A DNA stretch of 64,000 nt from Amphiscolops sp. MND2022 (lineage: Eukaryota). Under the pieces are notes generated by a model that ran no database searches, was not told the DNA's origin, and saw only the letters and a program-made list of their open reading frames with translations. A program made the translations under genes and the position numbers. Below are positions 40,267 through 64,000 of the stretch, in pieces (positions within the stretch are counted from its first letter, which is position 1; every line of letters begins with the position of its first letter). The stretch is from assembly GCA_964187785.1 (NCBI GenBank), contig OZ076409.1, positions 39,558,001 through 39,622,000 on the forward strand, read 5' to 3'.

Positions 40267-42789
40267 AAAGTGGAATTACTTGAAATTTTTTAATACTTGA
40301 TGTCCTTTTGATGCGCATCTCGAACACGAAACTGCACATATCTCTTTCCCACAATGCATGCCGGATACGAATTCAGTCGATGGTGAATGTTTACACAAAT
40401 CTGACCAACGAAACAGCAAAAAAACTTTACGAAAAGTGCTTGAAAGCGTCAAACACTTTTTAATTTTTAGAAGAATTTTTGATTCTTTTCTCTACCTTGA
40501 AATAGAAAAGTTTTATTATAAAAGGCGCACAGCATAGATAGTTATTTCGTTTGAAAGCTAATGAAGAAAAAATTCAAAAAAAAATCGGAAAAAAATTTTT
40601 TTATATTTTTGGTGACTTTCTCTTTCTTTTTCGCAGCAGTGCAATTACTTTTCGGAACCTGTACTGGTAGCAACAAGTTTTGACGCTGGGCCTATGTACT
40701 TTCTAATTTAGAAAAGCATTCGATAGTTGTCCAATTGAGGAGTATCTGGTCGATAAAGAAGAAACTTCGGAATTTTTGACTCTTTGTTCTCACCATCTGG
40801 CTCGTTGGAAGTTTTATTCAGCAAGGAATTACTGTAAAATAACTAAAATCGTCTCTAATCTGTCGAAAATGAGGTCTTTTCAAATCATTTTCCGAAATTG
40901 GTGTGTTTTTCAGGCCAACTTTAACAAGTTTTAGTTTTCATTTCCTGAAAAACGATTCTTGGATACCGGGTGTAGTCGTTGGTGAGGTTTTGAAGAAGTG
41001 TCGTTCACGAAATTGCTCAAAGTTTTTAGGAAAAGCTGCAAAAAAGTCAAAAACTTGTATTATATTGAAAAGTTTTGGTCATTCGGAGATGGTTTTCTTC
41101 GAAAAAAAACTAAAGTTCTCTCTTTTGAAAGCGTGCTGCGGAAATAGTTGTATCGTCTGAATCTTTTCGCAGATTTTTAATTGCCAACCTTTTGAGTATA
41201 AAACTACAAAAAATCGCGAAAACTGAAAAGGTTCATTTTGAGGCACTTTTTCCTATCAGAATTTTGCAACGAGCCCACTTGATACCGCGTCTTTTCGTTG
41301 TTGAATGTTTTTATTATTCTAACGCACGAGCACTTTTGACAACTTCACGAAATTGGTAAACAAAAAAGGTCGAAATTTGGAAACTTTTGGGCTTTTGACT
41401 GTTTTGGTCTATCAGTATTGTTTTTCCTCAAAAACTGCCACTTTTCGTTGAAAGGCGTACTGCTTGGCTAGATGTTTCGTTTGAAGCCTAATAATATTTT
41501 CAATTCACGAAACTTCACCCAAAAATATACAAAAGTGCTCTAAAAGTGTCAACACTGATAATGTCGACAAGTGGCGGGTCAATTTAAAGGATTTTCTCGC
41601 ATAAGCATGCGGATCTTTCTTCAAAAATTCTACTTGAGAACAATTTTGATCACTTTTGAACGTTTTGAACAATCTCATTACGAAATTTTGTATACAATTC
41701 ACAAAAATTGAATTAAAAAAGATGAAAAAAATTGAAATTGTCATATTTTTGTCTCTTTTGGAGTCATGCTCGAGTTCGTTTCAAGGAAACCACTGCAGCG
41801 GTCTCCTCAAAAAATTGTACTGCATACCTTGTTCTTTCGTCTTCGCTTGCTCGTTTCAACCCTCTAGTTCAAGAAAACCCTCAGAACTTAGACACGAATG
41901 ATACGAAAAACTACAAAAACTGGAAAGTTTTGATATTTTCAGAACTTCGGGGTAAATTTGAGGCTTTCTTCTTTCGAAAATTGCATTTATTTCTTCAAAA
42001 GAGCTTCCTAGACTACAATTTCTTTCCTTATTGACTGTTTTTACAATCTAAGCCACGGAGTCTTTTTTATTGGAAAACTGCTTTTATTTGTTTCAAAAAG
42101 CATCCTGGACAAGAAATTTTTCCTTGTTGAGCATTTTTTTCCTTTCTAAGCCACGAAGGGTATCGAAACTTTAACAAAAATTTCAGTAAAATGTTAAAAT
42201 GCCTGTACTTTTGGATTGTTCGTCAATTTCAGTCTCAATTTGCCGCAATTTTCTAATAATCTGCGTTCGTTTATTTCTCCAAAAAAACCTCCTCTGCTGG
42301 ATATCTTTTTTTTTCCTTTACGATATTTTTTCAACATTTCAAACCACGCAGCGATTATAAAATTTGACAAAAATTGCATAAAAACGGTAAAAATTGGAAA
42401 GTGGTGATTTTAGGGAAATTCTGGGGGTTTAGAAATAATACCAATTCGCCTGTTTTGGGCCAAAGAACCTTTTTGTGTTCCGATTTATCTGCAAAAACAT
42501 CAACACGCGGTACAAAGGACTTCCGGCAAGTATATTTGGTCATTAAATCCAACTGCTGATAAAAACTACGTTAGAAGTATTCCGTTGACTGGGCGTCATT
42601 TTGTTGTTTCATCAAGAACTGTGGGATTGTCTTGCATCAAAATTTTCCAGGCGTTTCTGAGGACATTCTGAACACTGTGAAATTCGGGCAGCTGATAGCA
42701 GTATCTAGACTTTTGAGCTATCTGCTAGTTCCTCCAGTCGTTTGATACCTTTTGAACAAATTTTATTGAACTTATGGAGAAAATAAAAA

Positions 42790-43045
42790 GGGATTGTCTA
42801 ATGTCATTTTGCCTAGGGAGGTTATTTTCATAAGCGAAACTAGCATACTGATTTCCAAAGTGCTCATTCGACTCTACATCTCCCTGTACCGATGATTGTT
42901 CAATAGCATCAGCTAATTCTCTTTCTATGGGGTTGTTACTCCCATTTCCTAGCATCACGTCCATATTTTCTATATCGGACAGCATGTCCACCTCTCTAGA
43001 TTTTCTAGCTTTTGCTATCTGGCGTCTGGTAGAAGGCACAAGATT
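42790..43045 (-). pseudogene. Truncated protein-like ORF fragment, possibly the N-terminus of a retroelement gag
   Basis: PSTRRQIAKARKSREVDMLSDIENMDVMLG...IERELADAIEQS has a basic-then-acidic natural protein composition and stops abruptly. No diagnostic motif. Confidence 0.35.
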
Positions 43046-43880
43046 ATTGCAAGAGTAAAGAATTTGAATTGGAATCTTTAGGCTTGCAAACAAAATTTTA
43101 TTCGGTTATTTAACAACGAACTGACTGTGACTTCTTGTAGGAAAATTTTCTCCCCGGGACCACGAGTCCCGGTTATTTATAATCAACCTAGCATGACGTA
43201 CATAAAATTGGATGTCATCAGTCTAATTTTAGCAACAAATATTCTAAAAATAGACACGAGGGACAACGTGTCTTTACAAATATAATAGCGTAATCCTAAT
43301 AATAGTAACTGCCATGACGTAATTGATTTACACACGTTCATACATATGTAGCAACTACGATCATGATTGTTCATGTGGCCCTTCAGGCCGTTCAATTGAG
43401 TTTCATTAGCAACCTTACATGTAGAGCAATTCATGTTGAATTACATGTAACAGATACGTATAAGGATGGTACATAGACATATCATTACAGTGCACAGGCA
43501 AGCCTTATTTGCTGAAAGCGCAGCATAGTGCGTTCAATATCGTGGATTCCAAGACCATACCTTTAACCGTGCAAAATTGGCAAATTACGTCATTTGTCCC
43601 GGATTCCACGGATTTAGTCCTGGATTCCAGTAACATATGCTTAGCTGTACGAACTGTCGGCATGCAGCGGTGTCCCGGATTCCACAAAAACGTAAGTTTT
43701 CCGAAATGAACCAATCAGATTGCAGAAATCGTAAATTTCCTGGATTCCACGACTTTATGCTGGACGCGATACGCGGCATTTCTTGTTTGAATTAAATTCA
43801 AGTGGATGACTGAACAAACATGATATTATGCACTACTTTTCGTATATTAATTCAAAATGATTCAGACAATCACACCAATA

Positions 43881-44515
43881 TCACACAAAATTTTTGTATT
43901 TTTCAGTTTATTACCAGTTTTGAAAAAACTGCAAGATCATCACAATCTGCCATTATTTGATGACTTGCTTCATTTTTGGTACCAGTCACGAGTATCTCTA
44001 TTCGTACTTCTTGGATTTTTTGTGTCAATCAAAACAATTTCCTTTGATATAAAATTGAATTAATTCAAGTTCTTCTGCCTTTCTAATAATGATCATGCAA
44101 AATGAATATTATATTACACAAATATTCGTATTTTCAAGTTTAGTACCAGTTTTGAACAAACTGCCAGATCATCACAATCTGCCATTATTTGATGACTTGC
44201 TTCATTTTTGGTACCAGTCACGAGTATCTCTATTCGTACTTCTTGGATTTTTTGTGTCAATCAAAACAATTTCCTTTGATATAAAATTGAATTAATTCAA
44301 GTTCTTCTGCCTTTCTAATAATGATCATGCAAAATGAATATTATATTACACAAATATTCGTATTTTCGAGTTTAGTACCAGTTTTGAACAAACTGCCAGA
44401 TCATCACAATCTGCCATTATTTGATGACTTGCTTCATTTTTGGTACCAGTCACGAGTATCTCTATTCATACTTCTTGGATTTTTCGTGTCAATCAAAACA
44501 AGTTCCATTGATATG
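43881..44515. repeat. Tandem repeat, 232-bp unit, ~2.7 copies, near-identical
   Basis: gatcatcacaatctgccattatttgatgacttgcttcatttttggtaccagtcacgag recurs at a spacing of about 232 bp; the ORF track repeats at 43857/44089/44321. Confidence 0.95.
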
Positions 44516-44669
44516 TAATTTTTTTTTAAATTGATGAAAATAAAAAAAGTGCCAAGTATATTAAGTTTTGTCAGTATTTGCAATTTCCAACTTTTATAAT
44601 TTTTGTCACAGAAATTTCAAACAAACATTTTTGTAAACTGGATAAAATTCTGACTCATTTCCAGGTCTA

Positions 44670-44840
44670 GACAGCTGAACGAGAACTGCGCAGGGGAGAG
44701 AGCTAAACCGCACAAAAACGGACTTCTTCGGGCAAAATGTGATGATCACAAAAAGTAACGGGCCACAACCCACAGGAAGCGAAGGCAAAGGAAGCGAAAA
44801 CGAATACTGATAAAAGGCGAAACATACAAACACTCCCAGT
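44670..44840 (+). mobile_element. Short Gypsy 3'-region fragment
   Basis: Translates RTKTDFFGQNVMIT, matching RPKTDFFGNNIMVS near the end of the Gypsy ORF at 62673-63407. Confidence 0.65.
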
Positions 44841-45017
44841 TGCTACTTAATACTCGTGGTACTACCTATATTAAACGATACGCAATTGAGTTTTGATAAT
44901 AGTAGTATGTACAAGGATGATACTTTATTAATAGTATGTACAATTTCGAGAAAGCAAAGTTCGATTACCAAAATATAATTTTTCTAGTATGTATTTTTTC
45001 GAAGGATTCCAAGATTT

Positions 45018-45090
45018 TGCGGTCGGAGAGATTCGAACTCGATACTTTATAATTAGGAAGCCAACGCTCTAACCATTCGGCCATAGCGCC
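45018..45090 (-). pseudogene. tRNA-derived sequence (Arg-CCT-like loop); SINE head or tRNA pseudogene
   Basis: GGCGCTATGGCCGAATGGTTAGAGCG...TTCCTAA...GAGTTCGAATCTC has good A and B boxes at tRNA spacing, but the acceptor and anticodon stems do not pair. Confidence 0.7.
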
Positions 45091-45324
45091 TCTGATTGGA
45101 CGATTTGTTATTTGCTATATAACATTTCCTCTTTTATAAATTGAGAAAATAGGCATACTGAGAGGCCTCTTTTTCGTCCTCACGAAAGATGTTTTGGACA
45201 TATTTTAAATGTCTGACTTCCAATAGCAACAAAGTTTGGCTTTAAAAAGTCTTTGTCTCACGAAAACCATGAAAACAATTTTGCAAGCATTTTATTAAAA
45301 AATGGCATTTATTTATAACTGTCT

Positions 45325-46195
45325 TGTCATCAAAATATAGCAGATTTTTATCAACTGCCATTTTTCCATAAACATTCAACGAATGAGTTCGTTCTTGAAT
45401 GGTCCTAAAACGATTGTGGAAAGTAAGACCATGTCTTTATACATGTGTCGTGGAAACCATATACATATCTTAAACTGTAAGAAAACAACTACCAAAGGGG
45501 GTAGTACGTCAATATTAAAATCTGACTGTATTGTCCTTGTTTCCATCAAAATAGCATTCACTGTTCGATGGCCACGAAAGCGACTGTGGGAAGTAAGACC
45601 ATATCATTATACATGTGTCGCGGAAACCGCATACATATCTTAAACTGTAAGAAAACAACTACCGAAGGGGGTAGTACGTTAATATTTAATTCTGACTGTA
45701 TTATTGTACGTCAACAATGAAATTTTGATATACCGTATTAGTGTCATGGAAAAATTGCTCAAAATTCAATGACGTTTTAGAATATTCTGATATTTATTCA
45801 TATCTGGCTCACTATTGAAAACTGGCAGAATTTAATGAAATGGTACATTAAATGTACCATTTCATTAAATCTACATTTTCGATTGGTTACCAATTTTAGA
45901 GGCCGGCTTTTGTTCGCTCGAAAGGTATTATGGACATGATTTGTCTCTCTAACTTCTAATAGCAACGAATTTTGGCTAAAAATGCAATTCAAAAGTGAAA
46001 TTAATCATGACTAATTTTGGTCCCAATCGTGAGTAATTTTTTTACTCACGATTGGGACCAAAACATCACAAAATCTTTTTTCATTTTAGTATACTGAAAG
46101 GCCTCCTTTTTGTCCTCACGAAAGATATTAGGGATATATTTTAACTGTTTGACTTCTAATAACAACGAAATTTGGCTTAAAATGCAATTCAAAAG
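45325..46195 (+). repeat. Left arm of ~870-bp inverted repeat (199-bp-family units plus palindrome 46015-46063)
   Basis: Reverse complement of ~58865-59738, e.g. ccataaacattcaacgaatgagttcgttcttgaatggtcctaaaacgattgtggaaag versus 59640-59697. Confidence 0.92.
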
Positions 46196-46349
46196 TTCAG
46201 TTGAATGTTGACACTAATGTCTTCGGGTCCTTCCACATGGCGCTGCGATACACGTCTGCAGGCGGGGAAGTGCCAACACCAGGGGGATTGTCAGCTGTGT
46301 CAGGATTGCCAGCTTTCTGAAATTCGCCGGACACAGCACCTAAAACAGA

Positions 46350-47180
46350 ACGGGAATTTCTAACCACCTTTGAACAAAACTATTCAATAAAAGAATTAGA
46401 ACTCCTGGCGGTAGTTTGGGCAATAGAGAATTTTCGAAACTATGTGTATATCTGCCCCTCAAGAATATGTCATTATTATGTCACGTTGGCTATTTCCGCA
46501 TAAACTATTTTGTAACGTTGGATATTTTGGCATTGGCTAATATGGCATTGGTTATTATGATAATGATTTGATGCATTTGACGCTCCGACGCTCTCATTAG
46601 CACGCGTCTCAATACTGTGTTCTTTAGTACAATCAATTATTTGCATCCAAAAATAAATAATTGTAATTGCTACCTCCTAAAAATAAAAAATTGTGTTTAT
46701 TTTATTGCTAATCATTTTTCGACCAATTATTTTTTTAACACCCTTGCAAGTAGAGAGATAGGTAGATATCTACCCGCTGGGTAGATAGGTTATTACCGTT
46801 CCAATTCACAGTAACGCACTCACCAGGCAGAACGATAGGAATGGCTGACTATTTTCCCAGGTATCCCTCGCCAAGTCACCAAAATAACCAAATAAAAGAA
46901 CTATGGAATAACTGGTTTACAGTAAACAAAATTGATAATGAGAAAATTGTTTTAGATCAGCAGAAACGGCAAGAAGTAACAAAGCAACCAATCAGAGAAA
47001 AGATGACAGGTGAGGAAAAAGTGGCAGGAGAGAGCGAACGGACGGCCGGCGGCGAAAGCGAACGCGAGAACGAATTATGCGAACAAGAAAGAAAAACACT
47101 TAAAGGCATAATTGCGTCAATTTGTAATCAAGACAGCAGCGGAACGATGAACGACGAATAACTGTAATAAAAACTAAAAC
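46350..47180 (+). mobile_element. Gypsy RNase H/linker fragment, interrupted at ~46451-46770
   Basis: FLTTFEQNYSIKELELLAVVWAIENFRNYVY (to ~46449), resuming as TRWVDRLLPFQFTVTHSPGRTIGMADY (from ~46772). Confidence 0.85.
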
Positions 47181-47293
47181 CACTGGTGTTTCTACAACAC
47201 ACTTAGCACTGTATACTGGGGAGAACTAAAAGTTTATGTATGGTGGGGTCGTTTAGCACTAGGAATGGTTAGTACTAGAAGTCTAAATGACAA

Positions 47294-47533
47294 TCAGCGC
47301 ATCCTAAATCCGAAAAACGGATCGATTCTTACACTTCCACTGGGCCCGTTCCTTAAGACACAGTTCTTCCTGCAAAGGGGGCACGCAACTTCTAATCTCG
47401 CCTGGGCCCACCCTCTGCGCTCGTTGTCGCGATCCTTCACCTCAATCCAACGATTGCGGCATCCCTCACAGAGGAAGTGTTGGTCGTGGAGGCTCGTTCG
47501 TGTTTCTTCATGGCAGACCATGCACTGAGGCAT
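47294..47533 (-). CDS. Small RING-finger protein (79 aa), putative E3 ubiquitin ligase
   Basis: ATG in aaaATG context. Pattern C-x2-C...H-x2-H-x2-C-x2-C-x3-W...C-P-L-C-R, including the Trp and CPxCR typical of E2-binding RINGs. Confidence 0.78.
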   Translation of the reverse strand: MPQCMVCHEETRTSLHDQHFLCEGCRNRWIEVKDRDNERRGWAQARLEVACPLCRKNCVLRNGPSGSVRIDPFFGFRMR

Positions 47534-47979
47534 TTTGCGATATAATATGAAGGTATCAAAATTATGGTTAGAAAATTTTTTTCGAAATTATGGACGTTTT
47601 TGCTAGGCAGTATTCCAAATGAATGATAACCAGACTGGTTAAACCAGTAACCGAAATTTCAGCAAACATTGAAAGATTTCAACTAAAGGGAACGTCCCTT
47701 TTGTTCACGGTACCTTGGCGTTTTTTCACACTGAAAGTGGCTTTAATGCATTACTCGCTTTCTTTAATGAACACGCGGACACTGATAAATAACCTTTTTG
47801 GGCTAACAATTATTTAGAATCCTAATTACGGACAAGTGAGATCAACAATTTCTCTTTGTTCAGCTATTGCTATTGAACCGTGAATCAGAACAATTTGAAG
47901 CTGAATATGAACATTGTAAACGCGACCAGGCCGCCCATATTTTGTCCCCGGTGTCCCAACCATCATGACATGTAATAGC

Positions 47980-48620
47980 AACGAATACTTTTCTCCTTGA
48001 CTTGTAATAAACACAAAATTTGTCTCAAAAGTCCTAGTCTCACGAAAACACCTATCAATTTTGCATGGCATTTTTTGAAAACATGGCATTTATTCATAAC
48101 TGTCTTGTCATCAAAATATGGCAGATTTTGATCAATTGCCATTTTTTCATTAGCACTCAACGAATGAGCTCGTTTTTGAATGGTCCCAAAACGACTATAG
48201 AAAGTAAGACCATATCTTTATACATGTGTCGTGGAAACCGCATACTAATCTTAAACTGTAAGAAAACAACTACCAAAGGGGGTAGTACGTCAATATTTAA
48301 ATCTGACTGTATTGTCCTGGTTTCCACCATTTTGAGCATATTGTCTTGGATTCCACCAAAATAGCATTCACTGTTCGATGGCCACGAAAGCGAATGTGGA
48401 AAGTAAGACCATATTTTTATACGTGTCGTGGAAACCGCATACATATCTTAAACTGTAAGAAAACAACTACCGAAGGTAGTAGTATTTCAATATGTAAATT
48501 TTAAAGAACCGTATTAGTGTCATGGAACTATTGTTCAATTTTGGATGGCGTTTCATAATTTTCTGGCATTTTTCCTCGTTTTGCTTTTAAATAAAATCTG
48601 GCAGATTTTGTTTAACTCCA
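47980..48620 (+). repeat. 199-bp-family repeat block (same orientation as left arm)
   Basis: aaagtaagaccatat...gtgtcgtggaaaccgcatac...aaactgtaagaaaacaactacc recurs at ~48201 and ~48399. Confidence 0.9.
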
Positions 48621-48897
48621 ACTTTTCGATTGGTTTACCATGGTTTATCATAACCTCTACTTCTCGCGACGTAACGGGGTACGATGTGTTGGTTTCTCTT
48701 CACTGTATTTGATCTTCAGCAGAGTATGAAAAATCTTTCACAACTTGAAATTGGAGTTATGTTTATCACAGAGATACGCAAATTCAAGAACAGAATTCTA
48801 ATAGTATTATTTTGAAATAGTAATGTATCGCTAGATATGAACACAAATATCAACACAACATAATTACGGTGTCCCATTTTTTGTTGAACTCTGGGGT

Positions 48898-49511
48898 CTA
48901 CAAAGTGATCTGAGAACATTCTTCATCTAAGTCGTCGTCGTCATCATCAATGTTGTCAATTTCTCCGGCGAAAGTGTCATCATCATTCTCGAAAAAGAGT
49001 TTTGGTAATCTCGTTTGTCCATTTCTGTATCGTTTGAGATAAGCCACAGCCGATATATTCTCGTTTGATTTTTTCCCTGATATTTGATCAAGGAAGAGTG
49101 GTCTCATATCATTTACTCTGGCTCGACGAAAATTACTTCCGGGGGCGATGGTGTAATCTTTGGGGTCTAACAACGTAACTACTTTTTTGACATCCATGAT
49201 AAAATTCTTCTTCAAAAAAGTTAGACCTCCTTGGGCAAATTTCTGAGCAATTTGTGAGTATTGAGCAGTTTCTTTTTTCTGTTTTGCTGTGAGTTGCGAT
49301 GATGGGTATTGACTGTCCGAATCTGAAGACTGGGACGTGGAAAGTCTTAGTTTTTTCGCCGGCGGCATCTTCTTTTTCAGTTCTTCAATTTCTTGCACAG
49401 ATCCTGTGGCGATTACTAGGTCTTCTTCGTCTTTGACCAGAACGAAGCAATTAGGCAGTCGTGAATGTGTCTTCATGAGGGCGTCTGCTTGATCGTGTTC
49501 AATGAATATGC
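48898..49511 (-). CDS. C-terminal part of the transposase gene (second half of BRCT-like domain plus acidic tail), separated by a 1-nt frameshift
   Basis: One extra G in the run at 49511-49515 gives LIKLINEMGGIFIEHDQADALMKTHSRLPNCFVLVK...TFLKKNFIMDVKKVVTLLDPKDYTI, a BRCT-like pattern. Contains NLS-like PPAKKLR. Confidence 0.72.
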
Positions 49512-52277
49512 CCCCATTTCGTTGATAAGTTTAATCAGAACATCCTTCGTTAACGAAATCCCATCGACTACCCCTAATCTTCCAATTGAAGTGAACCTCA
49601 TACCACTTAAAAGTTGGGAATCGGGATGCGATTTCCCGATTGCAAGAGAAGTCGAGGAAATTGGGGTCTTGCAAATTTCGAGGTATGTTGGTCCGGGGTA
49701 TTTTGCTTCCAAATCATCAACAAGTTTCTTAAGTATTTCAGATATTTCCAAGCCATCATGCTTCATTGTTTCCAATTCAATCGATGCACGGAGGAATTTT
49801 CCAAATGAAGATGACAATTCCAGGAAAAGAGGATCTTTATGGTAAATATTACCGCCACCACGCATGGTTTTTGTCTGGAAATAGCGATTTGCGTGATGAT
49901 TGGATTTTTCAAGCCCTTCGCACATGTGGTCAAAAGGTCTTTCCACAAACCCTCCTTCTACAATCTGCGGCATCATTGCGAGCTTCAACTTATATGGTGT
50001 CAATGAGCATTCACCAAATAACAAAATGCTTGTCTGATAATATATTTCAGCCCATTTCTTGTAGCATTGGGCGTCAAACTGCTCAGATCTCAAGAGAATT
50101 GCACAGCGGTTCAGGCTGGAGCGCAGCAATTCACATGCATCTGTCTTCGAGATGTATGGATTGGCGGATGTCTTGTCACTAGGGTGAGGCTTATCGAAAA
50201 GTTCTGGGAGAAATTGTTTTAGTATTTGATCACTAGCAGCTGATTCACTCCCAATAACAACATCGTTTGTGGGATCCCAAACATCTTCAAAAAGATTCCC
50301 TATTGAACAATCATTTGCGCCAGCCAATTCTTCTTTTTCTGCTATAATAGATAGGGCATTACTTCCGGCTAATGACACACTGTTCACAGTACCAACACCA
50401 GAACCTAGTTTTGTGTTCACATTGAACTGGAAATATGGCCTTTTTGCATCACGTCGTGTAAGATTTTCTTCAAAGGCTTTGAGTGAGGGGCCATAATCGG
50501 GATACTTGTCAGTGATTATTTTCTGCGCCACTCTCCTCAAGTCGTTTTCAACACATCTGGTGATCATGTGCGTCGGGTCAGGGCATATACATCGCACGTC
50601 TTGGAAATAAACAAGGGATGTTTTTGGCAGTTCCTCTCGGAAAGGTATCTTAAGATCGGTTCTCAGACCTGTTTCAGGATGGCAATTTGTTGGCAAAAAG
50701 CTATTATCAGGAACATGAAGTGGCATTTTTGATTCGAAATTCGTTTCACAGGAAATTCCAAGTATCAAGCGTAGCAAAAATGGTGTATCTCCACTGTAGG
50801 TTAGTTTAACACCACGATCTGACAACTCCGACGTTTTCTGGTAGAGCCAACCCGAACTTTGATCACCAGCTATAGTTGGTCCAAGGTTCTGTTCCATCGC
50901 GAATCGGCTGTCTTTTCCTCGATACGATGCAAAACAGAACACTGAACTTGATGACTGGCAACTAATTTTTTCCGATAACACTCGAAAGGCAAAACGGGTT
51001 GTTTCCAGGCCTCCAATTTCACAAGCGTCGCCCCAGATATCAATTCTCAAACCACATAAATCATACATTCCGAGCAAGTATGCGGCCAGCTCAACACATT
51101 TTATCAGATCGCATCGGAAACCGGAGAACGTTCTTTCGGGATGGCATAGTGAAACAAAATAGGTCTGGATTTGAGCTGTTGATTTCTTGATCAAGCGTAT
51201 ACAAGGTACTACGTTGTATCCCAAGCCAACTACCGAAAGTTTCGATCTGATAAGTTTTATGACTGCCTCTGTATTTCCAGTTTGAGCAGTAAGTGATAAA
51301 ATGTCACTGAATTCCTTGGTCGATCCTCGATTCTCAAAAAGTCGGTCGATTAGAATTTTCACCACATTCACGTCTTCCTTCTTTGTGAATCCCTGGTATT
51401 TCCGTTCAACAATGTTGTCTTTCACTTGTTCTACAAACTCAGTGAACCCAATTTCTTTATTATCGTTGGCCTCATCGATGACCTTTTTCCAGAAACAAGT
51501 GGCTGCTTCTTTGTTCAATTTTTTTGTTCTCCTCTTTTGGGGGTATGGGCTTGTCGCTGCATCAAGGTACATTGTTGGTGGTGCATGCGAATCCATTGTT
51601 TCAAGGTCCATTGTTGGTGGTGCATGCGAATCCATGGTTCCAGGGTCCATTGTTGGTGGTGCATGCGAATCCATGGTTCCAGGGTCCATTGTTGGTGGTG
51701 CATGCGAATCCATGGTTCCAGGATCCATTGCTGGTGGTGCATGCGAATCCATGGTTCCAGGGTCCATTGTTGGTGGTGCATGCGAATCCATGGTTCCAGG
51801 GTCCATTGTTGGTGGTGCACGCGAATCCATGGTTCCAGGGTCCATTGTTGGTGGTGCATGCGAATCCATGGTTCCAGGGTCCATTGTTGGTGGTGCATGC
51901 GAATCCATGGTTTCAAGGTCCATTGTTGGTGGTGCATGCGAATCCATGGTTTCAAGGTTCATTCTTGGTGTTGCAAGCGAATTCATTGTTTCAAGGTCCA
52001 TTCTTGGTGTTGCAAGCGAATTCATTGTTTCAAGGTCCATTCTTGGTGTTGCAAGCGAATTCATTGTTTCAAGCACCATTGTTGGTGGTGGTGAAAACAG
52101 ATCCGAGGTACGTATTGCAAGGGGATTCAAGGTTGGTGTTACAAGAAGAGGAAAATTGAAAGTATCTTCGTAAGGAATCAAATATCGAGGGACGAAGCAT
52201 TCCACAAATCTCTTCCTTGCGTCGGTCCATTGGAAATCCTTGAACCCTCGGAAGATTAAAAACATCGCAATTTTTCC
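49473..52277 (-). CDS. RAG1/Transib-like DDE transposase, exon 2
   Basis: Acceptor ttcttttcAG ends at 52278. Ordered motifs IDIWGDA (D at 51027-51029), TYSGDTPFL (D at 50787-50789), CPDPTHMITR, VSLAG, LTPYK and CEGLEKSNH (E at 49908-49910) parallel RAG1 ESCDG / GYDEK / DALHCD / ITNY / SEGNESGNK. Confidence 0.8.
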   Translation of the reverse strand, partial: GKIAMFLIFRGFKDFQWTDARKRFVECFVPRYLIPYEDTFNFPLLVTPTLNPLAIRTSDLFSPPPTMVLETMNSLATPRMDLETMNSLATPRMDLETMNSLATPRMNLETMDSHAPPTMDLETMDSHAPPTMDPGTMDSHAPPTMDPGTMDSRAPPTMDPGTMDSHAPPTMDPGTMDSHAPPAMDPGTMDSHAPPTMDPGTMDSHAPPTMDPGTMDSHAPPTMDLETMDSHAPPTMYLDAATSPYPQKRRTKKLNKEAATCFWKKVIDEANDNKEIGFTEFVEQVKDNIVERKYQGFTKKEDVNVVKILIDRLFENRGSTKEFSDILSLTAQTGNTEAVIKLIRSKLSVVGLGYNVVPCIRLIKKSTAQIQTYFVSLCHPERTFSGFRCDLIKCVELAAYLLGMYDLCGLRIDIWGDACEIGGLETTRFAFRVLSEKISCQSSSSVFCFASYRGKDSRFAMEQNLGPTIAGDQSSGWLYQKTSELSDRGVKLTYSGDTPFLLRLILGISCETNFESKMPLHVPDNSFLPTNCHPETGLRTDLKIPFREELPKTSLVYFQDVRCICPDPTHMITRCVENDLRRVAQKIITDKYPDYGPSLKAFEENLTRRDAKRPYFQFNVNTKLGSGVGTVNSVSLAGSNALSIIAEKEELAGANDCSIGNLFEDVWDPTNDVVIGSESAASDQILKQFLPELFDKPHPSDKTSANPYISKTDACELLRSSLNRCAILLRSEQFDAQCYKKWAEIYYQTSILLFGECSLTPYKLKLAMMPQIVEGGFVERPFDHMCEGLEKSNHHANRYFQTKTMRGGGNIYHKDPLFLELSSSFGKFLRASIELETMKHDGLEISEILKKLVDDLEAKYPGPTYLEICKTPISSTSLAIGKSHPDSQLLSGMRFTSIGRLGVVDGISLTKDVLIKLINEMGAYSLNTIKQTPS
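51570..52090 (-). repeat. Coding minisatellite: 13 x 39 bp (MDPGTMDSHAPPT / MDLETMNSLATPR)
   Basis: Directly visible in the DNA and in the 978-aa ORF translation. Confidence 0.97.
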
Positions 52278-52679
52278 CTGAAAAGAATATTTTTTCGAAA
52301 ACGGTTTTTGTGGTGGATATGTAAATGTTTCAGTTATGTATTTAGTAAAGGTATTTTTAGTTTTTGGGGATGAGGGCAAAAAACAAAGATGAAGAGAAAA
52401 AAGTTTCAAAATGAATTTCCAAACTTATTTTCATATCGTGGTTCGTAGTTTTTTCCAAAATGAATGCATTGATTTCGAATGCGAGCGACCACTAAATTGC
52501 AAGAACGTGGCGTGTAGCCAATTGGTGGTGGACAAGAGAAAACGCGCGGTTTGCACAATTATATCAATTTAAATGAACATTCACAAATCTCCAAAAGCAT
52601 CCAAAACGCCAGCGAAGTACGACTTTTACGAAAAAGATAGACACTTGCAAAAATGGTAATTAGAAAAAAAGTTACTTAC

Positions 52680-52907
52680 TGCTATACACACAGTCGGTTT
52701 GCTTTGTCCTTTCATGGGAATTCTCCGGAGTAAGTCTTTGTTATTTAACCCACACCCGGCGAATGCATCGTCAATGATCTTTTCGAATTTTCTGTATTTG
52801 TTCGTGAATCGTTTCTCGGCCATGACTTCGAACATTTTGCTGTCGATAAACAGCAAATTTTCATCGATTTGTACAGAATGGGCATTCCAAAGTGCTAAGG
52901 GGTCCAT
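52680..52907 (-). CDS. Transposase gene, exon 1 (76 aa)
   Basis: ATG at 52907 (MDPLALWN...KPTVCIA). Donor GTAAGT begins at 52679, phase 0, matching the phase-0 acceptor before 52277 (GKIAMFLIFRGF). Confidence 0.72.
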
Positions 52908-53239
52908 TAAAAGAGCGTTGATATGAGATTTCAACAACGTTGTGTTCAACTCAACTAGTGATGAAGATGTATGAAGGTCACAGTGACTATCTGAAATATA
53001 TTTGCTAAATGACACTTTGATTCAGAAGTTGAGATTGGGAGTTAAGATGAACCGACACGTTCACAAAAACAGGGACTTTCAATACCATAATGAAAAGAAG
53101 CTCTTGAACAACTTTCTCTTTACGTGACGTGGAAACCCTATTTTCGTGACTAATAAATTTTAAAACCAAGCCAATACAAACTGATATGATTATGGACGTA
53201 ACACGAAGCTCATTCGTTAAAGTAAAGTAGTCAAAAAAC

Positions 53240-53720
53240 TGCAGTTTAAAAAAATTTGCCAGATTTTGCTGGCAAGCCAGATTTTTTTAAATGCCAGATT
53301 TTTCTAAAACGTCATTCAAAATTGAGCAATATTTCCATGACAATAATAGGGTATATTAGATTTTAAATATTGACGTACTACCCCCTTTGGTAGTTGTTTT
53401 CTCACAGTTTAAGATATGTATATGGTTTCCACGACACATTTATAAAGATATGGTCCTACTTTCCACAGTCGCTTTCGTGGCCATCGAACAGTGAATGCTA
53501 TTTTGGTGGAATCCAGGACAATATGCTCAAATTGGTGGAAACCAGGACAATACAGTCAGATTTAAATATTGACGTACTACCCCCTTTGGTAGTTGTTTTC
53601 TTACAGTTTAAGATATGTAAGCGGTTTCCACGACACATTTATAAAGATATGGTCCTACTTTCCACAGTCGCTTTCGTGGCCATCGAACAGTGAATGCTAT
53701 TTTGGTGGAATCCAGGACAA
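53240..53720 (-). repeat. 199-bp-family repeat block (orientation of right arm)
   Basis: tttaaatattgacgtactaccccctttggtagttgtttt at ~53362 and ~53561. Confidence 0.9.
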
Positions 53721-53901
53721 AGGTGGTATGGATAATTGACTGAACTTAATCTGACCATCTGGTTGAAAATCTGGTTCATATATATCGGATAATTATTCGA
53801 AAAGTGAACAAAACGAGTATTTTTAAAAAACCAAAAAAAAGTGTTCAGAATAAACAGACTCTTGAAAAAGCACATGAAGATATTTGTCAGCAAGTCGCTT
53901 T

Positions 53902-56900
53902 TCACGAAAAAAGGGACCGCGCTGTTGGGTCCTCGTAATCGAATTTCAATTCTTCGAAAGGGCTTATATCTCTGATAGCCCTGAAGCAGCAAACTCGGGA
54001 CTGGTCATAAAGCAAAATGTCAGTTTGCTTTATGTTTGCATCTTTGGAACAGTGGTTAATGAGGCGTCCCAAACATAGAATATTTGGGTGACTTTCACAT
54101 ATCTCGGAGGAAGCGTTGATCAGTCTCCGTCCGGGACCTTTCACCTGGAACAAAGAAGTTTCAAGAATACCTTACAAAAGCCCACAATTTTCAACAGATT
54201 TTGGAATGAAATGATCCAAAAATGAATTAGTTACTAGCTGTCGTGTGAGCATATTGAAAATTATGTATGTGGTACACAATTTGGAGTCGTATCTGATCAC
54301 AAGGCTTTACAAGTTCCAGATGTTCTTGATGGTGTGCTAGATGATCTAGATAGATCTTGTTGCAACGATGACTTTTGTGTTGTAGGTCTTACTGCGATGA
54401 AAGGAAGCGAAGTTGAGTAATTGTAAATTCAGGCAATGTTTGTGTAAAAGTCACTATTCACTAAAATAGCAAATCAGATAAAAATGGCAGTACTTTTGGT
54501 TAGTCCCTAACCAATAGTAATGCCATTTTTAACTGATTTGCCATTCTACTGAATAGTGACATTCGCACGTACATTGCCTGAATTTACAATTACTCAACTT
54601 CGCTTCCTTTCATCGCAGTAAGACCTACAACACAACAGCATACTAAAAAATCCTGTTTTGAAAAGCAAAAAAGTTTCGTGTACTTTCATTTAGCTAGGTC
54701 CTAGTGAACTAATAATTTTTTTCTTCTTCACTTTTAGCTCTCTAGGTCCAAAATTGATAAAAGAACAAATACTCATACTTTTTAGACTTTTTAGATTTTT
54801 TATGTGTCTTCACTCACTTGGTATGTATCTAACAAATAAACTTTAGATTACGTACCTCCATCAGATATTCAGACTGTACGCCTTCCATCGCCAGGGCTTG
54901 TGTCAATGTCATTTTCTCAAGTATTTGACCGTGGTAGTCAAGCACAATCTCGTTTTTAAAAAACTTCTGTGTGCTGACCACTCCGCGTCCATAAGATTTG
55001 AAATTGGCTGGACAAACGCCTGGCCAGCTCTGCGTGTCACATCGTTCGAATAGTAAGGTCTGACACTCGAAATCCATGTTATGTGCCATCCCTTTATACA
55101 TTATTTTGACAGAACCATCACTGCCCATTCGTCTCGAATCTGGATTTTGTAGCATAGGTAAAACCAACAGAAACACTTTTCTAATATCCTGTTTGACGTC
55201 TTCTGGGGTTGTCCATTTCTGCCTCTGGAAAAATCCTTCGATTCTTTTCTCCAAGATGTTCAAGTCACATTTCCCGTTCATGTATTTGAAGAACGTTGTG
55301 GCTCGAGCTGACTGTCGTGCGTATCGTTGAGCATCTTGATGTTTTCTCACGCATGTTTTGATGGTATCCTGGTCAAATTCATTGCCAAATTTTCCTTGCA
55401 CTTCCCTGATTTGATTTTTCAATTTTGGCAATCGTGCTTCAGGGTCGTCAACAATTGGATAGATGAGTTCCAATTTGAACTTCAGCTGATTGGCTGGTTT
55501 TTCACATTGTTGAAGTATCTGAAATACATGCTTTCGATTAAATATATGATCTGTTACACTAGAACTACAATGGTTTAGTAGATGTAGGTTTTTCAATCGA
55601 AGTTGTTTTGAAAACTCCGAAATATATAAAAATTTAAATGTCAAAAAAAAACAAACGTACAGGAATCAAATACTGGTCGACAACATGGCTTGGTCTAAAA
55701 CAAGACTTCCCAACAGAATTGACGAACAGGAGCTCTGTCACGACTGGTCGGTCATCACTTTTGGAGACACATCGTTGGAATTTCACACCTTGGGTTTTGT
55801 TGAGAAAATCAGGTCTCGTGTGGCTGGCATACTCAACCAAACCTTCGATTAACCAGCGTGGTGTCTTGTAATGTATTCGAGAAACAGAATCTGCAAAAAA
55901 GACATTTATTGAACATGTAAATTAGTTTCGAGTTTTCAGTTTTTTTTAAAATTTCATTTGTCAGAAAGACAAAATAGGCCCAAAATATTTTCGCCTTTAA
56001 GAACTCTAATCAATCGGAAATCTGACACCAAAACAAAATTTATTGAAAAAACAAACAAAGTTATTTCACAACGCCATTCAACACTGAACAATATTTCCAT
56101 GACAATAGGACGGTTTATAAGGTTTTAAATTTTGACGTACTACCCCCTTTGGTAGTTGTTTTCTTACAGTTTAAGATATGTATATGGTTTCCACGACACA
56201 TGTATAATGATATGGTCTTACTTTCCACAGTCGCTTTCGTGGCCATCGAACAGTGAATGCTATTTTGGTGGAATCCAAGACAATATGCTCAAAATTGTTG
56301 TTTTCTTACAGTTTAAGATATTTTAAAACGCAATTCGAACATTGAGCAATGTTTCTAATATTTCTGTTGTAGAGAAAAGAATAGTGCGAACTGTGTATTA
56401 TGGCAAAGTAAGGTCAACTGACCCTTTCATCTATTTTGCCATTTTCCTTCAGAATGGCAATTATTGGTTGTTTACCAACAATCTAGATATCGCCACTTAC
56501 AACTTTCTCACGCTCTGCCATATTCCCTTCTTTGTAAATGAAAGGGCAAAGTAATTATTATCAACTAGGAATGTTAATTTTCGGCACAGCCGAGAATTGC
56601 CAAAAACGCCGAAACCCAATAAATTTAGAGTGAAGGTGCCGAAATCCAACTTGGAAAAACATTCGGAGCAGGCTATTTTTTTACCAATGCGCCATCGAAC
56701 AGTGAATGCTATTTTGGTGGAATCCAGGACATTATGCTCAAAACGGTGGTGGAAACCAGGACAATATATCCAATTGTTGTTTGGATCATTCAAAATTGAT
56801 AGCTACTTTGATTTTCATCATATGTTTGAAAAAGTCAATAAAAGTTTAAGAGGTTAAGGGTTTAGGTTATGCATAAATACTTACTTTCATTTGGCTCGAT

Positions 56901-57629
56901 GGAAAGTGGTATGTCTTCATCATCCGGGTAGTCTCTCATATGCACCACGGCTTGAGCCAACTCGTGGACAGTGATATTGCTGATTTCTTTGTCCAACAGG
57001 CCAGCAACGCCAACAAACAAAAACAGGTATGCCACCAGACTTCTGAAAAAGTTTATCTGGGTCTTCTTCGGGGCGCTAACATTCTTTTTGTAACGGCTCG
57101 TTGTGGCAACTATAAAGGATTTCAGCCATTCTTTGGCTTCATCCGTCTTCAAGTCGGGTTTGCTTTTTTTTGCAGGGGGAGTTGTTTTGACTACATTGTA
57201 GACTCTTTCTTCAAACGAGTCAACAGGTTGTTTCTGACTCGAGGTCGGAACTGTGGCGCTGGTTAAACCCACGGCATTGGAAATGTCAAGATTAGGAGAA
57301 GGAGTTACCGCGTGATCTTCGACCGGCTGATTTGGCTCGTGATGCTCTTCTTGCATAATCCCATCTGCATTGTAAGCAATCGAGCTCTGCGAGCTCTGCG
57401 AGATCTGCGTGAAAAATGTCTGCGAGCTCTGCGGGTAGACTGTTGCATCGAATGAGGGTGTCGAATTTGTCAAAGAAGCTTCAGAACTTCCGCTGAGCAA
57501 AGGAGTTGAGGATTCGAGCAACCATGGGGTCAAGTTTGTCAATGGAGTCGAGAACTGGCTTAAAACAGATGAGTAGGACAATGGTAGATCTTGAGCAGGA
57601 GTTTGATTTTGGGGATTTGAATTATCCAT
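53902..57629 (-). CDS. Four-exon gene (57629-56885, 55890-55661, 55518-54856, 54144-53902; 626 aa): Ser/Thr-rich N-terminus, degenerate tyrosine-recombinase-like region, C-terminal SETD8-type SET lysine methyltransferase
   Basis: All three introns are GT-AG with matching phases (1,0,0); total 1881 nt with no internal stop. SET motifs YGRGVVSTQKF...VLDYHG, GRLINHCSKDAN and FRAIRDISPFEELKFDY. Confidence 0.85.
54222..54312 (+). mobile_element. Tiny degenerate Gypsy RNase H fragment in intron 3 of the SET gene
   Basis: Reads LLAVV...ENYVCGTQFGVVSDHKALQ (with disruptions). Confidence 0.6.
54375..54635. repeat. 261-bp foldback palindrome (MITE-like) in intron 3 of the SET gene
   Basis: ttgtgttgtaggtcttactgcgatgaaaggaagcgaagttgagtaattgtaaattcaggcaatgt is perfectly inverted at the right end. 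Inner arms are imperfect; centre ggttagtccctaacc. Confidence 0.92.
56090..56770 (-). repeat. 199-bp-family repeat pieces in intron 1 of the SET gene (~56090-56330 and ~56690-56765)
   Basis: gccatcgaacagtgaatgctattttggtggaatcca.gaca.tatgctcaaaa is present at both sites. Confidence 0.88.
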
Positions 57630-58189
57630 TAGTTATTCAGTTGCAACCAAGCGATTCAAAAACTTGGAAGGAACTGTGATGTATATTCGAGAAGACTGGA
57701 AGCTACTGATTGTGAAAATGGTTTGAAAGAAACAGCAAATCTTTATCAAACAATCGCTATCAACCAAAATCGAGCGTCATCTTTTTTAATTATAGGCGGC
57801 GTTGAAATGCCCCAAAGATCTCCTAATTAATTTCAAAGGTGAGTATTAATTGAACCTTAGGATAAACAGTAAGCATCGTCCCTACTTCAATCCTAAGCGG
57901 TTTCAACTTGCCGCCTCATCATAAGCGGTGTCGACTTGACGCCCCAATTGAATATGCCATCAATTGCCAGGCACTACTTTACTTTGCCAGTGGGTGTTCA
58001 TTGGATCTGAGCAGCAACAGTAATTAAGCATCACCTCTGCTTCAATTATAAGCGGCGTCATTTTGCCCCAGCTTTGAAATTGACGCAGGAAATGGAATTT
58101 CTCTTTATTTCCCCAGTGGACGTTAATTGAACTATTGATAAGGTGACTATTCCAGTCAGTCTCAAACTATTCAACCTTTAAACGCAGTA

Positions 58190-60923
58190 ATGCTTCTTCA
58201 AAAGTTCGAAACGAACGAAGTTGTCCATATCCTGGACCCTCTAACATTTATTTGGGAGCTTGCAAAAATCACTGCAATCATGAGTGACTGGAGTGTCAGA
58301 ATCAAATGGATGGAGTGGTCTACGAGAAAAGCAGTTGACATAACAGTGCCAGAAGTCGACAGGGAAGATGAGGTTGCTATAACATTTCAATACTTTTTTT
58401 CGAAATATTTTCCACAATTCTCTCATTTCTTAGGCCATAGTTCCGATGAAACACTAAACAGGTTTTGAGGACAAAAAATACACAAATCGAACTTTAAAAT
58501 TGAATACCTTGCTAAGCTCATACGTCGGAGTGAACAAACTAGAACCGGAAGTTTAACAAAGTTTGCCAAACTTGGACGACAAGCCAGATATTCGAAAATG
58601 CCAAATCAGTAGAAAATGCCAAACAAGAAAATCATAAATTTCCCGAGGGCAAAACCGAAAATTGAGATTTAAACCTTGACATACTACTTATAAATAGGGC
58701 TAGCATTTAAAATCAAAAATTGAGAAGTCCTACTTCCAGCATGGAAATTCAAAAAATGAAAGTTAAATCATGGTTCCAATTTAAAAGATTTCGTGATATT
58801 TGTGTCCCAATCGTGAGTAAGAAACTTACTCACGATTGGGACCAAAATTAATCATGACTAATTTCCCCTTTGAACTACTTTTTTAGCCGAAATTCGTTGC
58901 TATTAGAAGTTAGAGAGACAAAACATGTCCTCAATATCTTTCGTGAGGACAAAAAGGAGGCCTTTTAGTATACTAAATTGAAAAAAGATTTTGTGATATT
59001 TTGGTCCCAATCGTGAGTAAAAAAATTACTCACGATTGGGACCAAAATTATTCGTGATTAGTTTCACCTTTGAATTGCTTTTTCAGGCAAAATTGGTTGC
59101 TACTAGAAGTCAGAGAGACAAATCATGTCCATAATATCTTTCGAGCGATTAAAAGCCGGCCTCTAAAAATGCTAACCAATCAAAAATGTACCACTTCATC
59201 AAAATCTGCCAGTTTTCAATTTTTAGCCAGAGATAAACAAACGTCAGAATATTCTAAAACGTCATTGAATTTTGAGCAAATTTTCCATGACACTAATACG
59301 GTATATCAAAATTTCATTATTGACGTACAATAATACAGTCAGAATTATATATTGACGTACTACCCCCTTTGGTAGTTGTTTTCGTACAGTTTAAGATATG
59401 TATATGGTTTCCACGACACATGTATAATGATATGGTCCTACTTTCCACAGTCGCTTTCGTGGCCATCGAACAGTGAATGCTATTTTGGTGGAATCCAAGA
59501 CAATATGCTCAAAATGGTGGAAACCAGGACATTACAGTCAGATTTAAATATTGACGTACTACCCCCTTTGGTAGTTGTTTTCTTACAGTTTAAGATTAGT
59601 ATGCGGTTTCCACGACACATGTATAACGATATGGTCTTACTTTCCACAATCGTTTTAGGACCATTCAAGAACGAACTCATTCGTTGAATGTTTATGGAAA
59701 AATGGCAGTTTAGCAAAATCTGCCAGATTTCAATGACAATCCACGTGTTGATATCCTCCACATAATTTTTTTTCAAAGAAACCCATGATTGAAGTTGATA
59801 GAAATTTGAAAATCGAGAAGTAATTTTCAAATTTTTTCAGCGACGTTGGAATATTAGAAAAGCCCAAAAACTGGATGAATCTCTGAGAAAGAAACGGGGT
59901 AGAAGCTTGCCTTTCAATCCAAGGAAGTTAATGCGCAATGACGAAGTTTTCTTTTGGCAATCAAATGACGAAGATTGTGACTGTATCGGCGACTTCGAAA
60001 ATTGCGAGGTTACTTGCTGCGGGTCAGTTGTTACTGCGACAGTGATGATCAACGATCCGTTCCTGCGACAGTGCTTGGTCGTTGATGACGAAGGAAAACA
60101 ATTTTTTGTCTCTTATCGACAATTACGGGCAAGCTTGCCTGATGAGACTGCTCCAGATGACACCAACGAAGAACCTGAATCACCTCCGACCATAATCGAT
60201 TCCAGGCCTCCCGTACCAAAAAAGCGATGCCCCCCAAAAACAATACCTTTTGTGGATGCAGTATCTTTGATACCACACAGTGACGAGAATGTTGAGTTGA
60301 AGTATGCGCCATGCTATAACAACATCCTGAAAGTTGGTTCTCTCACCAACTATGCAAACGCGGCGTTTGAAGTAAAAGAACTGTTCTTTGATTGCAGCAA
60401 ACGAAAAGCGTTTGTTAAAATGATAGGAAAAACAAACCCCGATATTGAAGTACGCATGCCCGCACTAGAAGTTCAAGTTATCGAAGACGAAATAGAAGAA
60501 TTCAATATCCACATGCTAGTTCATCCTATTAACCAAGCATTCGCGGTGTTTTCAGCAGTCAAAAAGATGGTTGGATTCGCCCAGAAAAAACATTCAATGA
60601 CAAAATCATTGATTCCAGCGACGCCATTGACCCGTAAAATGTGTGGTTTTGAAACGACGTCCTCGAAAGAAACAGTGAAATTTTCTGGGGATATCAGCAG
60701 TGACTTCAAAGGGTCTAATCAGTCATGGGACAGTGTGCTTGGGAAACGATGGGACGTGATCGCAAGTAACAAAGAAGGTGAAGATGCTTTCATCAAAATA
60801 TTGAGGTTCACTGAACATCGTGAATTCGGATTTTTCATGATTCGATGTAGCTTCGTAGCATGTCGTGGTCACTTCAAGTGTTCAGATAGTTATCGATCCT
60901 TATATCAAACCAGTTTACAATGA
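58190..60923 (+). CDS. Two-exon gene (58190-58372, 59841-60923; ~421 aa) with Tudor/Agenet-like beta-barrel domain(s) and an unassigned C-terminal domain
   Basis: Exon 1 KFETNEVVHILDPLTFIWELAKITAIMSDWSVRIKWMEW fits F-x3-E-x-V...D...W-x2-A-K-I...V-x-I-x-W-x2-W. Phase-0 donor (weak GTtgct) joins strong acceptor ttttttcAG, giving ...EDE/RRWNIRK. Exon 2 is open for 360 codons. Confidence 0.65.
58790..59738 (-). repeat. Right arm of the long inverted repeat, with two palindromes (58804-58842, 58998-59048); lies inside the predicted intron of the Tudor-like gene
   Basis: Reverse complement of 45325-46195. attttggtcccaatcgtgagtaa-aaaaa-ttactcacgattgggaccaaaat. Confidence 0.92.
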
Positions 60924-61701
60924 AGGAGAATCTAATGACAAACCCAACGTCCTGTACCTCTACAAACTCGATTTCATTGTGTGTTATAGAGTAAGGAATA
61001 TGTGACTCAAAGCATGTATTGTTTACTGTACTTAATGCTATCCTCAATTGAAACCTTCTGCTCAACTTCTTTTGAATCTTTAGGCGGGTTGTTTAACATG
61101 TTACTGTTTTTCTCACAGGTTTGTGTTAAAGGTATTTTAGACCCTTCGCAGATAGATATTTACGCCTTTGTGAGTTGCATATCAGTAGGCGTCGAACGTC
61201 TTATTTCTACACTGAACGCATTCGAGGCTGATCTGCCTAACATGACGGAAAACACTCTGAACAAAATTTTTCTATAGTTATCAACGCTATTTTCAAGTCT
61301 GGCAAACCTAAATAATATGGCAAATGAATTGACAGATCATCATGTTATGGCGTGAATGATTATTTTATCTTTTTCTTATTATTATGATCAAAGATCAGGG
61401 GTTACAATCTGTGGGTTTATTCAATGTCAATGTCACTCAATTTACATTACAATTTACGAAAATCGTAACACAAACTAAAATGCTAGTTGGCTTACCAATT
61501 AGCTACATAAATAATGACGTAACAATTGTTTAGGTTTTTACAGGGTACTCAGTTTTTAATTTCGGCTTCTTCTGTTTATTCAATTCGATTCAATCCACGC
61601 TGTCTGCGTTTTCGTCAAACTTGAAGCTTTTGTCTGTTTTGGCATTTTGAAGCGAACTGCCGTTTTGCTCTGATACGGTAAATACTCGTTCTCGCTTCTG
61701 A

Positions 61702-63543: not shown

Positions 63544-64000
63544 TGTGAGAGAGGCTAAGCTATACTCTCGAAACTGACCTCATTCAAATAAGAAAAGTGT
63601 CTAGTTGTTGACAAACATAAATGACAAACACGGTACAGCATCTAGACTTAGGACTTAGTAGAAGTCATCGTCAACAGTAACAGATAGATTGCTTGTTTCT
63701 TATTTTTGTCTCATACAGAATTGAAAAATGTGGTAATTTGTGAATCCAATGGTTTCACATTTCGTTTTCTAATTTGCAATTTTTTTTATTTAAAATTTCA
63801 AGAAGGAAAAGAAACTAGAAACTCTGTTGAATGACAACCTTGAAAACAAATAGAATAATGGTGAATAAAAACAGTCAACATATATCAAAGAGTTCATCCT
63901 CTTTAGGGATAGTTCTAATGCCTTTTAGTGAAGCCATAATCGGTAGTGCATGAGGTCGAAATTTGTTTTCGCAAAACTTTGGAGTTTGCGAATTCTCCCT

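Follow-up and report, generated by a model that had tools for sequence, protein, structure and literature searches.

Within a 64,000-nucleotide stretch of the Amphiscolops sp. MND2022 genome (contig OZ076409.1, positions 39,558,001 to 39,622,000; hereafter "the window," numbered from its first letter), we find what is very probably (roughly 0.85) a copy of a DNA transposon that is young, present in many copies, and made up of several genes. Its spliced transposase of about 1,200 amino acids combines a DDE core of RAG1/Transib fold with a BRCT domain, and the gene is one base short in this copy. The original prediction, made from the DNA alone, had proposed a hidden BRCT domain fused to a DDE transposase and split over two open reading frames (ORFs). 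The hidden domain and the fusion are borne out; what had been missed is a further exon upstream, the resemblance of the fold to RAG1/Transib, and the multi-gene element around the gene. The frameshift is ordinary in itself, a private defect of the window copy or of its assembly, and the interest lies in the family.

One transposase gene split by a missing base

The long ORF (49473-52409, minus strand, 978 amino acids) ends with ...LLSGMRFTSIGRLG...LIKLINEMG and then a short out-of-frame tail, and a second frame, open on the same strand from 49530 to 48898, carries GGIFIEH...FLKKNFIMDVKKVVTLLDPKDYTI. The frameshift site is a run of five G residues (49511-49515, minus strand), one base fewer than in sister copies. 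We built a profile of this region from 49 relatives, with the three closest omitted, and compared it with the window sequence read through the break, an X standing at the break itself. The read-through scored 108.7 bits over positions 2-129 of the 130 profile positions, versus 23.6 bits (positions 2-41) for the end of ORF1 alone, 82.2 bits (positions 39-129) for the ORF2 frame alone, and 3.2 bits for the best of 200 shuffled controls. These scores indicate that ORF1 and ORF2 hold two parts of one domain.

Sister proteins tell the same story. A homologue search returned 36 proteins, the top matches being 98%, 93%, and 92% identical. We examined 45 close proteins (15 listed members of a 93-member cluster, 15 of 17 and 12 of 12 members of two others, and three more); 33 of them reach the break, and all 33 read through it in one continuous frame, which is the outcome of the comparison with other copies that the original prediction had suggested. 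The nearest sister, P0177, is present on four contigs and is 99.5% identical to the window copy on both sides of the break. A wider set of 176 relatives includes 39 that match the downstream frame, and in every one of the 39 the core lies in the same chain. In addition, contigs of a relative of about 93% identity carry one extra base at the G run in 4/4 public runs, together with six further inserted bases, common to all four, that lie within the BRCT loop and total two codons. The claim that a single added G joins the ORFs is confirmed at the level of sequence: they are one gene, the window copy is short of one base in its G run, and the 192-amino-acid ORF is no separate gene. Because the missing base falls within the GG turn of the BRCT domain, the copy as written encodes an intact core and a cut-off BRCT.

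Three causes had been put forward for the shift, and two of them, recent mutation and assembly error, are still standing. We give a real recent deletion about an even chance. A homopolymer consensus error at an intact locus, which would be a variant within the transposon reading, we put at slightly below even odds. In favor of an error, what is lost is a single base of a G run; across about 6.8 kb of the element's coding DNA no other frame break was seen, and the pieces checked against sister proteins align gap-free; the copy is nearly identical to the intact P0177; and some sister breaks resemble, by eye, slips in A runs. However, the frame is kept at the other 24 of 25 runs of at least five bases in the gene, a neighboring frame (ORF X, below) is letter-identical to a protein present on four contigs, and breaks look commoner in a subfamily that has diverged further than in its young counterpart, as real decay predicts. 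The third cause, programmed −1 ribosomal frameshifting or transcriptional slippage yielding short and long forms, would accord with a downstream frame that is open across the G run and a core that is complete before it, but we regard it as highly improbable: none of the 33 sisters has the break, the out-of-frame tail of the window copy is absent from all of the catalogued proteins, no X XXY YYZ heptamer occurs within 49440-49600, and RNA downstream of the run folds no better than shuffled sequence (z −0.46). Nor would splicing around the break serve: of the possible GT..AG introns just two restore the frame, and either one would remove the first half of the BRCT domain.

The gene also extends upstream. 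An ORF at 52626-53021 matches the N termini of distant relatives, with a donor GT at 52679 and an acceptor AG at 52278 bounding a 402-nucleotide GT..AG intron predicted by homology (52278-52679, minus strand). The 76-amino-acid exon 1 so defined (52680-52907, minus strand) encodes the start of a conserved N-terminal domain; its spliced junction aligns gap-free with unspliced relatives, and it matches P0011. The intron contains the TTG start of the 978-amino-acid ORF, which is most likely not a start of translation but intronic sequence, and the intact product, with exon 1 spliced to the main exon, would be 1,202 amino acids long.

The normal product would run from the N-terminal domain through a repeat linker, the DDE core, a single BRCT, and a basic helix to an acidic tail. 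The linker is encoded by a 39-bp tandem array (51563-52090, minus strand) specifying a 13-amino-acid repeat, and its length varies between copies. Beyond the BRCT, conserved helices, the acidic tail, and the stop occupy 48898-49134 (minus strand), with the basic helix at 49024-49050; the motif earlier quoted as the end of the protein is followed by about 85 further residues. Searches of the transposase and of its N-terminal half against PDB sequence profiles gave nothing significant, the best value for the transposase being E 0.56 to a ligase IV BRCT stretch. By eye, the N-terminal domain may be KilA-N-like, a resemblance that no search supports.

Fold of the core and the BRCT domain

We modeled the intact sister P0003 with AlphaFold2 from 61 aligned sequences (predicted local distance difference test [pLDDT] 82.7; predicted template modeling score 0.80). 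The best Foldseek matches of the model were RAG1 (E 5e-7), Transib, and BbRAG1L. Residues 162-670 align with RAG1 at Z 19.1 and a root mean square deviation (rmsd) of 3.5 over 399 residues; the core scored Z 17.4 against HzTransib, 16.8 against BbRAG1L, 11.7 against the P element, and 7.8 against Hermes. In the window the core spans 49755-51275 (minus strand), with the first D near 51029, the second D near 50789, a DxxH motif at 50579, and a candidate catalytic E at 49910. This acidic triad, assigned from conservation and not from mutation, is retained in 29/29, 46/47, and 59/59 of the rows having a residue there. The second D and the E are 293 amino acids apart, and between them the DxxH motif is nearly invariant (D in 52/53 rows, H in 54/54). 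Conserved histidines stand just before the catalytic E (57/59) and just after it (59/59). Zinc-site motifs were not found: CxxC, or C(2)C, occurs after the second D in 0/47 rows, and H(3-4)H in 0/59 rows across the 37 columns searched ahead of the HxxE motif. The model supports assignment of the core as an RNase H-fold DDE transposase and, with the intact sisters and the conserved D-D-E, upholds the proposed transposase-BRCT fusion. At about 51029 the window copy has Ala right after the first catalytic Asp, where its sisters have Gly; Ala also occurs there in distant relatives.

P0003 residues 713-878 align with the MDC1 BRCT at Z 10.8 (rmsd 2.3, 93 residues) and with Rev1 at Z 10.6 (rmsd 2.3, 90 residues), and most of the other top 50 structural matches of this segment are also BRCT entries. 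The model contains the β1-α1-β2-β3-α2-β4-α3 arrangement of a single BRCT whose halves fall on either side of the window frameshift. The first part (β1, α1, and the GG turn; 49512-49625) lies in the ORF1 frame and the remainder (β2, β3, loop, α2, β4, and α3; 49135-49509) in the ORF2 frame, both on the minus strand. The BRCT profile check that had been suggested gave a divided answer: neither the pieces from the window nor the three sisters nearest to it matched Pfam BRCT, but at E values up to 0.05 BRCT or BRCT_2 was matched by 20 of the 61 members, with P0033, P0041, and P0121 above the curated cut-off.

How widely the tail is shared was gauged from the 75 relatives that carry the catalytic-E motif, 50 of which extend at least 230 amino acids beyond it. 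The family's BRCT-region profile matches all 50, covering both halves in 49, a result that is partly circular, as 49 rows of the family itself went into that profile; it shows a shared tail, not BRCT identity. Judged by this profile, the BRCT-region tail is family-wide among the long members.

Between β3 and α2 lies a basic, serine-rich loop of low pLDDT (49258-49431, minus strand), 58 to 60 amino acids long in the window copy and 12 to 85 across 51 relatives. The long insertion originally described is therefore real, and its label as bearing a nuclear localization signal (NLS) is only plausible: the NLS-like patch near 49351-49362 was recognized by inspection, and the motif K[KR]x[KR] occurs in 11/51 loops. 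BRCT domains that bind phosphopeptides do so as a tandem pair with Ser/Thr-Gly after β1, and a Trp is conserved in canonical BRCTs. In the family the column before the β1 Gly is most commonly I, V, L, or C (16, 13, 12, and 3 of 56 rows), in place of Ser/Thr, and Tyr or Phe occupies the usual Trp position in 47/50 rows. Because the domain is single and departs from both positions, phosphopeptide binding appears unlikely.

The multi-gene unit and its surroundings

The transposase family is large and deep. Its clusters of 93, 17, and 12 members lie on contigs of at least 39 different sizes, and many copies are broken. Intact copies fall into subfamilies of 98 to 99.8% identity, and such near-identical intact copies suggest recent activity. 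At 50% identity the family comprises 338 clusters, and a quick tree of 51 rows has long branches. Of 40 displayed substitutions, the 26 that were classed comprise 12 silent and 14 replacing ones, too few to use. Two rearranged members were seen: in P0309 a deletion has fused the transposase to the RING ORF, and P0310 carries an internal duplication of the core.

In the window the transposase is part of a multi-copy unit, at least 13.6 kb long, that also carries a SETD8-like gene, a RING-like gene, and two genes, X and Y, that match no family. The RING-like gene (47294-47533, minus strand, 79 amino acids; Pfam RING E 4.6e-4, below the cut-off) is downstream of the transposase, and a RING gene also follows the transposase in locus L014. 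The SET-domain gene (53902-55665, minus strand; coding parts about 55521-54856 and 54145-53902) was delimited by splice sites and by Pfam SET (E 2.3e-7), and the closest solved structure to its relative P0342 is SETD8/KMT5A (E 2.6e-5). Its intron contains a 267-nucleotide, near-perfect hairpin (54372-54638, about 90% complementary) resembling a miniature inverted-repeat transposable element. ORF X (56862-57629, minus strand) encodes 255 amino acids and is multi-copy. Gene Y (58190-60923, plus strand; exons 58190-58372 and 59841-60923, 422 amino acids) is a conserved neighbor of the transposase; a PDB profile search with it gave nothing significant, and it had no usable Atlas match. Its first 60 residues may be Tudor or chromo-barrel-like, a reading by eye with no search support.

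The SET, X, and Y clusters number 62, 30, and 93 members. With contig size as a stand-in for contig identity, and from partial lists, 7 of 19 Y sizes, 4 of 15 X sizes, and 3 of 9 SET sizes are common to the 39 transposase-bearing sizes, as are 4 of 14 (again a partial list) for an ORF just upstream of the RING gene that overlaps a repeat module. Among distant elements, L007 has a Y relative placed head to head with its transposase (E 5e-20), and P0007 and P0242 both come from contigs of 14,243 bases. A set of 19 related loci, mainly short ones, yielded neither SET nor X. Near the L014 transposase an N terminus resembles that of Y weakly (E 4e-4), and in L007 the transposase has a PLAC8-family ORF (5886-6887, minus strand) as its tail-to-tail neighbor.

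Repeat modules, six in number and in two orientations, are confined to 45155-59739. They include a left group (45155-46196), one between the RING-like gene and the transposase (47998-48638), one upstream of the transposase and inverted relative to the left group (53222-53720), two partial modules (56070-56298 and 56691-56766), and one within the intron of gene Y (58783-59739). We considered these modules as outer terminal inverted repeats and rejected that role, as one of them sits in the Y intron. Palindromes of 40 to 50 nucleotides lie inside the modules (45830-45870, 46014-46063, 58798-58848, and 58998-59048). Element-specific short repeats in introns and intergenic DNA also occur in L004, L005, L006, and L014, in both orientations in the window and in L014; they may serve the transposase as internal binding sites or represent nested nonautonomous pieces.

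Retrotransposon-like fragments interrupt or flank the element at 46300-47160, 61702-63407, and 42725-43093; Pfam Integrase_H2C2 identifies 61702-62214, and the others were recognized by eye. Directly left of the element is a 232-bp tandem repeat of 2.7 copies (43878-44514). Farther away are a decayed Pao/BEL retrotransposon (34723-36740, Peptidase_A17), three diverged copies of a dispersed repeat family (15098-16324, 27351-28562, and 30994-31639), and a host adenylate/guanylate cyclase catalytic exon (4673-5593, plus strand). Rfam gave no match in 43000-64000, and no tRNA was found in the window.

Alternatives, mechanism, and relation to known systems

Several observations weigh against our reading of the locus as a RAG1/Transib-fold, BRCT-bearing transposon. 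The four public runs represent one variant of about 93% identity, approximately one independent copy and not the window locus, and X3 and X4 look like a single data set. Sister copies are proteins without genomic context, some of which may be alleles or reassemblies of one locus. The BRCT part folded alone, without an alignment, reached a pLDDT of only 34.6. At the sequence level, neither the PDB profile search nor Pfam matched RAG1 or Transib. Structures have been solved for few transposase superfamilies, and RAG1 may top the list partly by default. Finally, neither terminal inverted repeats nor a target-site duplication came to light for the unit as a whole, so that mobility is inferred from copy number. 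Exact inverted matches between 44601-45400 and 59741-64000 reach at most 11 nucleotides, retrotransposon pieces flank both sides, and heptamer-like words of the recombination signal sequence (RSS) type are scattered through the window, none pairing as ends.

Of the explanations that compete with this reading as a whole, the one to which we give most weight, still an unlikely one, places the enzyme in a superfamily that has been described but has no solved structure (Academ, Kolobok, Zisupton/KDZ, Lanisha, ESTA, or one of the unclassified families of Repbase), RAG1 being merely the nearest solved fold. The absence of the CMCT zinc motifs would suit this explanation. Yet the RAG1 and Transib scores (Z 17 to 19) stand clearly above those of P and Hermes and cover about 400 residues, including parts beyond the RNase H fold; none of the 61 members matches a transposase Pfam family; no helicase or nuclease family appears among the element ORFs scanned; and an Atlas feature search points to RAG1 families (scores 0.82 to 0.85), a lead only. 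It is very unlikely that the unit forms part of an endogenous DNA virus or a virus-transposon hybrid with the enzyme as its integrase. The ends of the unit are undefined, and in large DNA viruses, too, one sees RING and SET genes as well as repeats dispersed among the genes, but the genes here are spliced, the ORFs scanned include no capsid, polymerase, or ATPase family, and the only viral fold match below E 0.001 is a hAT-like protein. No relative was confirmed in viral contigs (0/12 and 0/11 candidate stretches) or in phage records, and none in prokaryote genomes (0/8 stretches). We give hardly any weight to a domesticated host gene family: introns and the fusion of a repair-type domain to a RAG-like nuclease would fit, but the three clusters of copies on so many contigs argue against it, as do the many broken copies, the one with an internal duplication, and the one that a deletion joined to RING.

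RAG and Transib breaks need mending by host end-joining, and little is known of how a transposase passes its break on to the repair machinery. With BRCT fused to a RAG1-fold enzyme in a deep family, this hand-over becomes testable. On our reading, the transposon would move by cut-and-paste transposition carried out by a transposase dimer, with hairpins probably formed on the flanking DNA in the manner of RAG and Transib. Because the phosphate-binding Ser/Thr is missing, the BRCT is read as a docking module, and its partners might be end-joining repair proteins at the break, our leading but still tentative choice; with lower and equal probability, DNA ends or else the module itself or another element protein; or, doubtfully, a phosphopeptide. 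The SET, RING, and Y proteins would probably be helpers that adjust chromatin. A bolder version, which we hold to be possible but improbable, sees an undescribed superfamily-level lineage, sister to RAG1/Transib, that lost the zinc site and gained a BRCT to recruit host end-joining to its own breaks and that, with its own H4K20-type methyltransferase, ubiquitin ligase, and partner Y, carries a kit to cut, mark, and repair. The family also suggests that a RAG1 fold can persist without the zinc site, and it adds relatives for tracing RAG origins.

No transposase-BRCT fusion was described by title or abstract in the literature searched; Repbase, subscription journals, and supplements lay outside that scope and may hold the family. 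The nick-and-hairpin chemistry that the mechanism borrows is described for RAG, BbRAG1L, and HzTransib (PMC10462144). Among known systems, RAG1 core and RAG1-like transposases (PDB 6xnx and 4wwx; BbRAG1L, 6b40) share the fold at 10 to 14% identity without a sequence match. Unlike RAG1, the family has no ZnC2/ZnH2 residues, and it has a C-terminal BRCT in place of the C-terminal tail (CTT); the second D and the E are 253 amino acids apart in RAG1 (PMC1131882). RAGL transposons carry a convergent RAG2-like (kelch) gene (PMC7204232). None was seen here, where the downstream gene is the same-strand RING-like ORF and the scanned ORFs include no kelch family, X and Y having been left out of fold prediction. 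HzTransib (PDB 6pqx) is similar in fold and DDE triad (Z 17.4, rmsd 4.3, 385 residues aligned). Transib is described as a single gene with a conserved CxxC, a D-E spacing of 206 to 214 amino acids, and RSS-like ends with 5-bp duplications (PMC1131882, PMC7204232), whereas the family lacks the CxxC, has a spacing of 293 and at least five genes, and showed no such ends. The CMCT clade, defined by C(2)C and H(3-4)H in the stretch from the second D to the E (PMC12730594), resembles the family in its RAG1-like fold and in the chromatin-enzyme cargo (TET/JBP) of some members (PMC12730594) but differs in the two zinc motifs, both missing here. A C/DxxH motif in the stretch from the second D to the E marks the hAT/P/MuDR/Kolobok/Dada group (PMC10045372); the family has DxxH, but its fold match to P and Hermes is weaker than that to RAG1. 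HarbingerS, going by the title of a reference in PMC12730594, is a DNA transposon with a SET methyltransferase, as here; its transposase is of a different superfamily. We conclude that the family probably functions like RAG1/Transib but falls outside the features that define those groups; we do not file it there and treat it as a novel form of transposon with the RAG1/Transib fold that may constitute a separate lineage. Its BRCT, in turn, has the topology of known BRCTs (MDC1, Rev1, XRCC1, ligase IV, and 53BP1; Z 7 to 10.8, best rmsd 2.2 to 2.6) and conserves the LxGxRF, GG, and LDP-x-x-Y positions, but it differs from them in being single, in its loop of 12 to 85 amino acids, in having a hydrophobic residue for Ser/Thr and Tyr/Phe for Trp, and in its fusion to a transposase.

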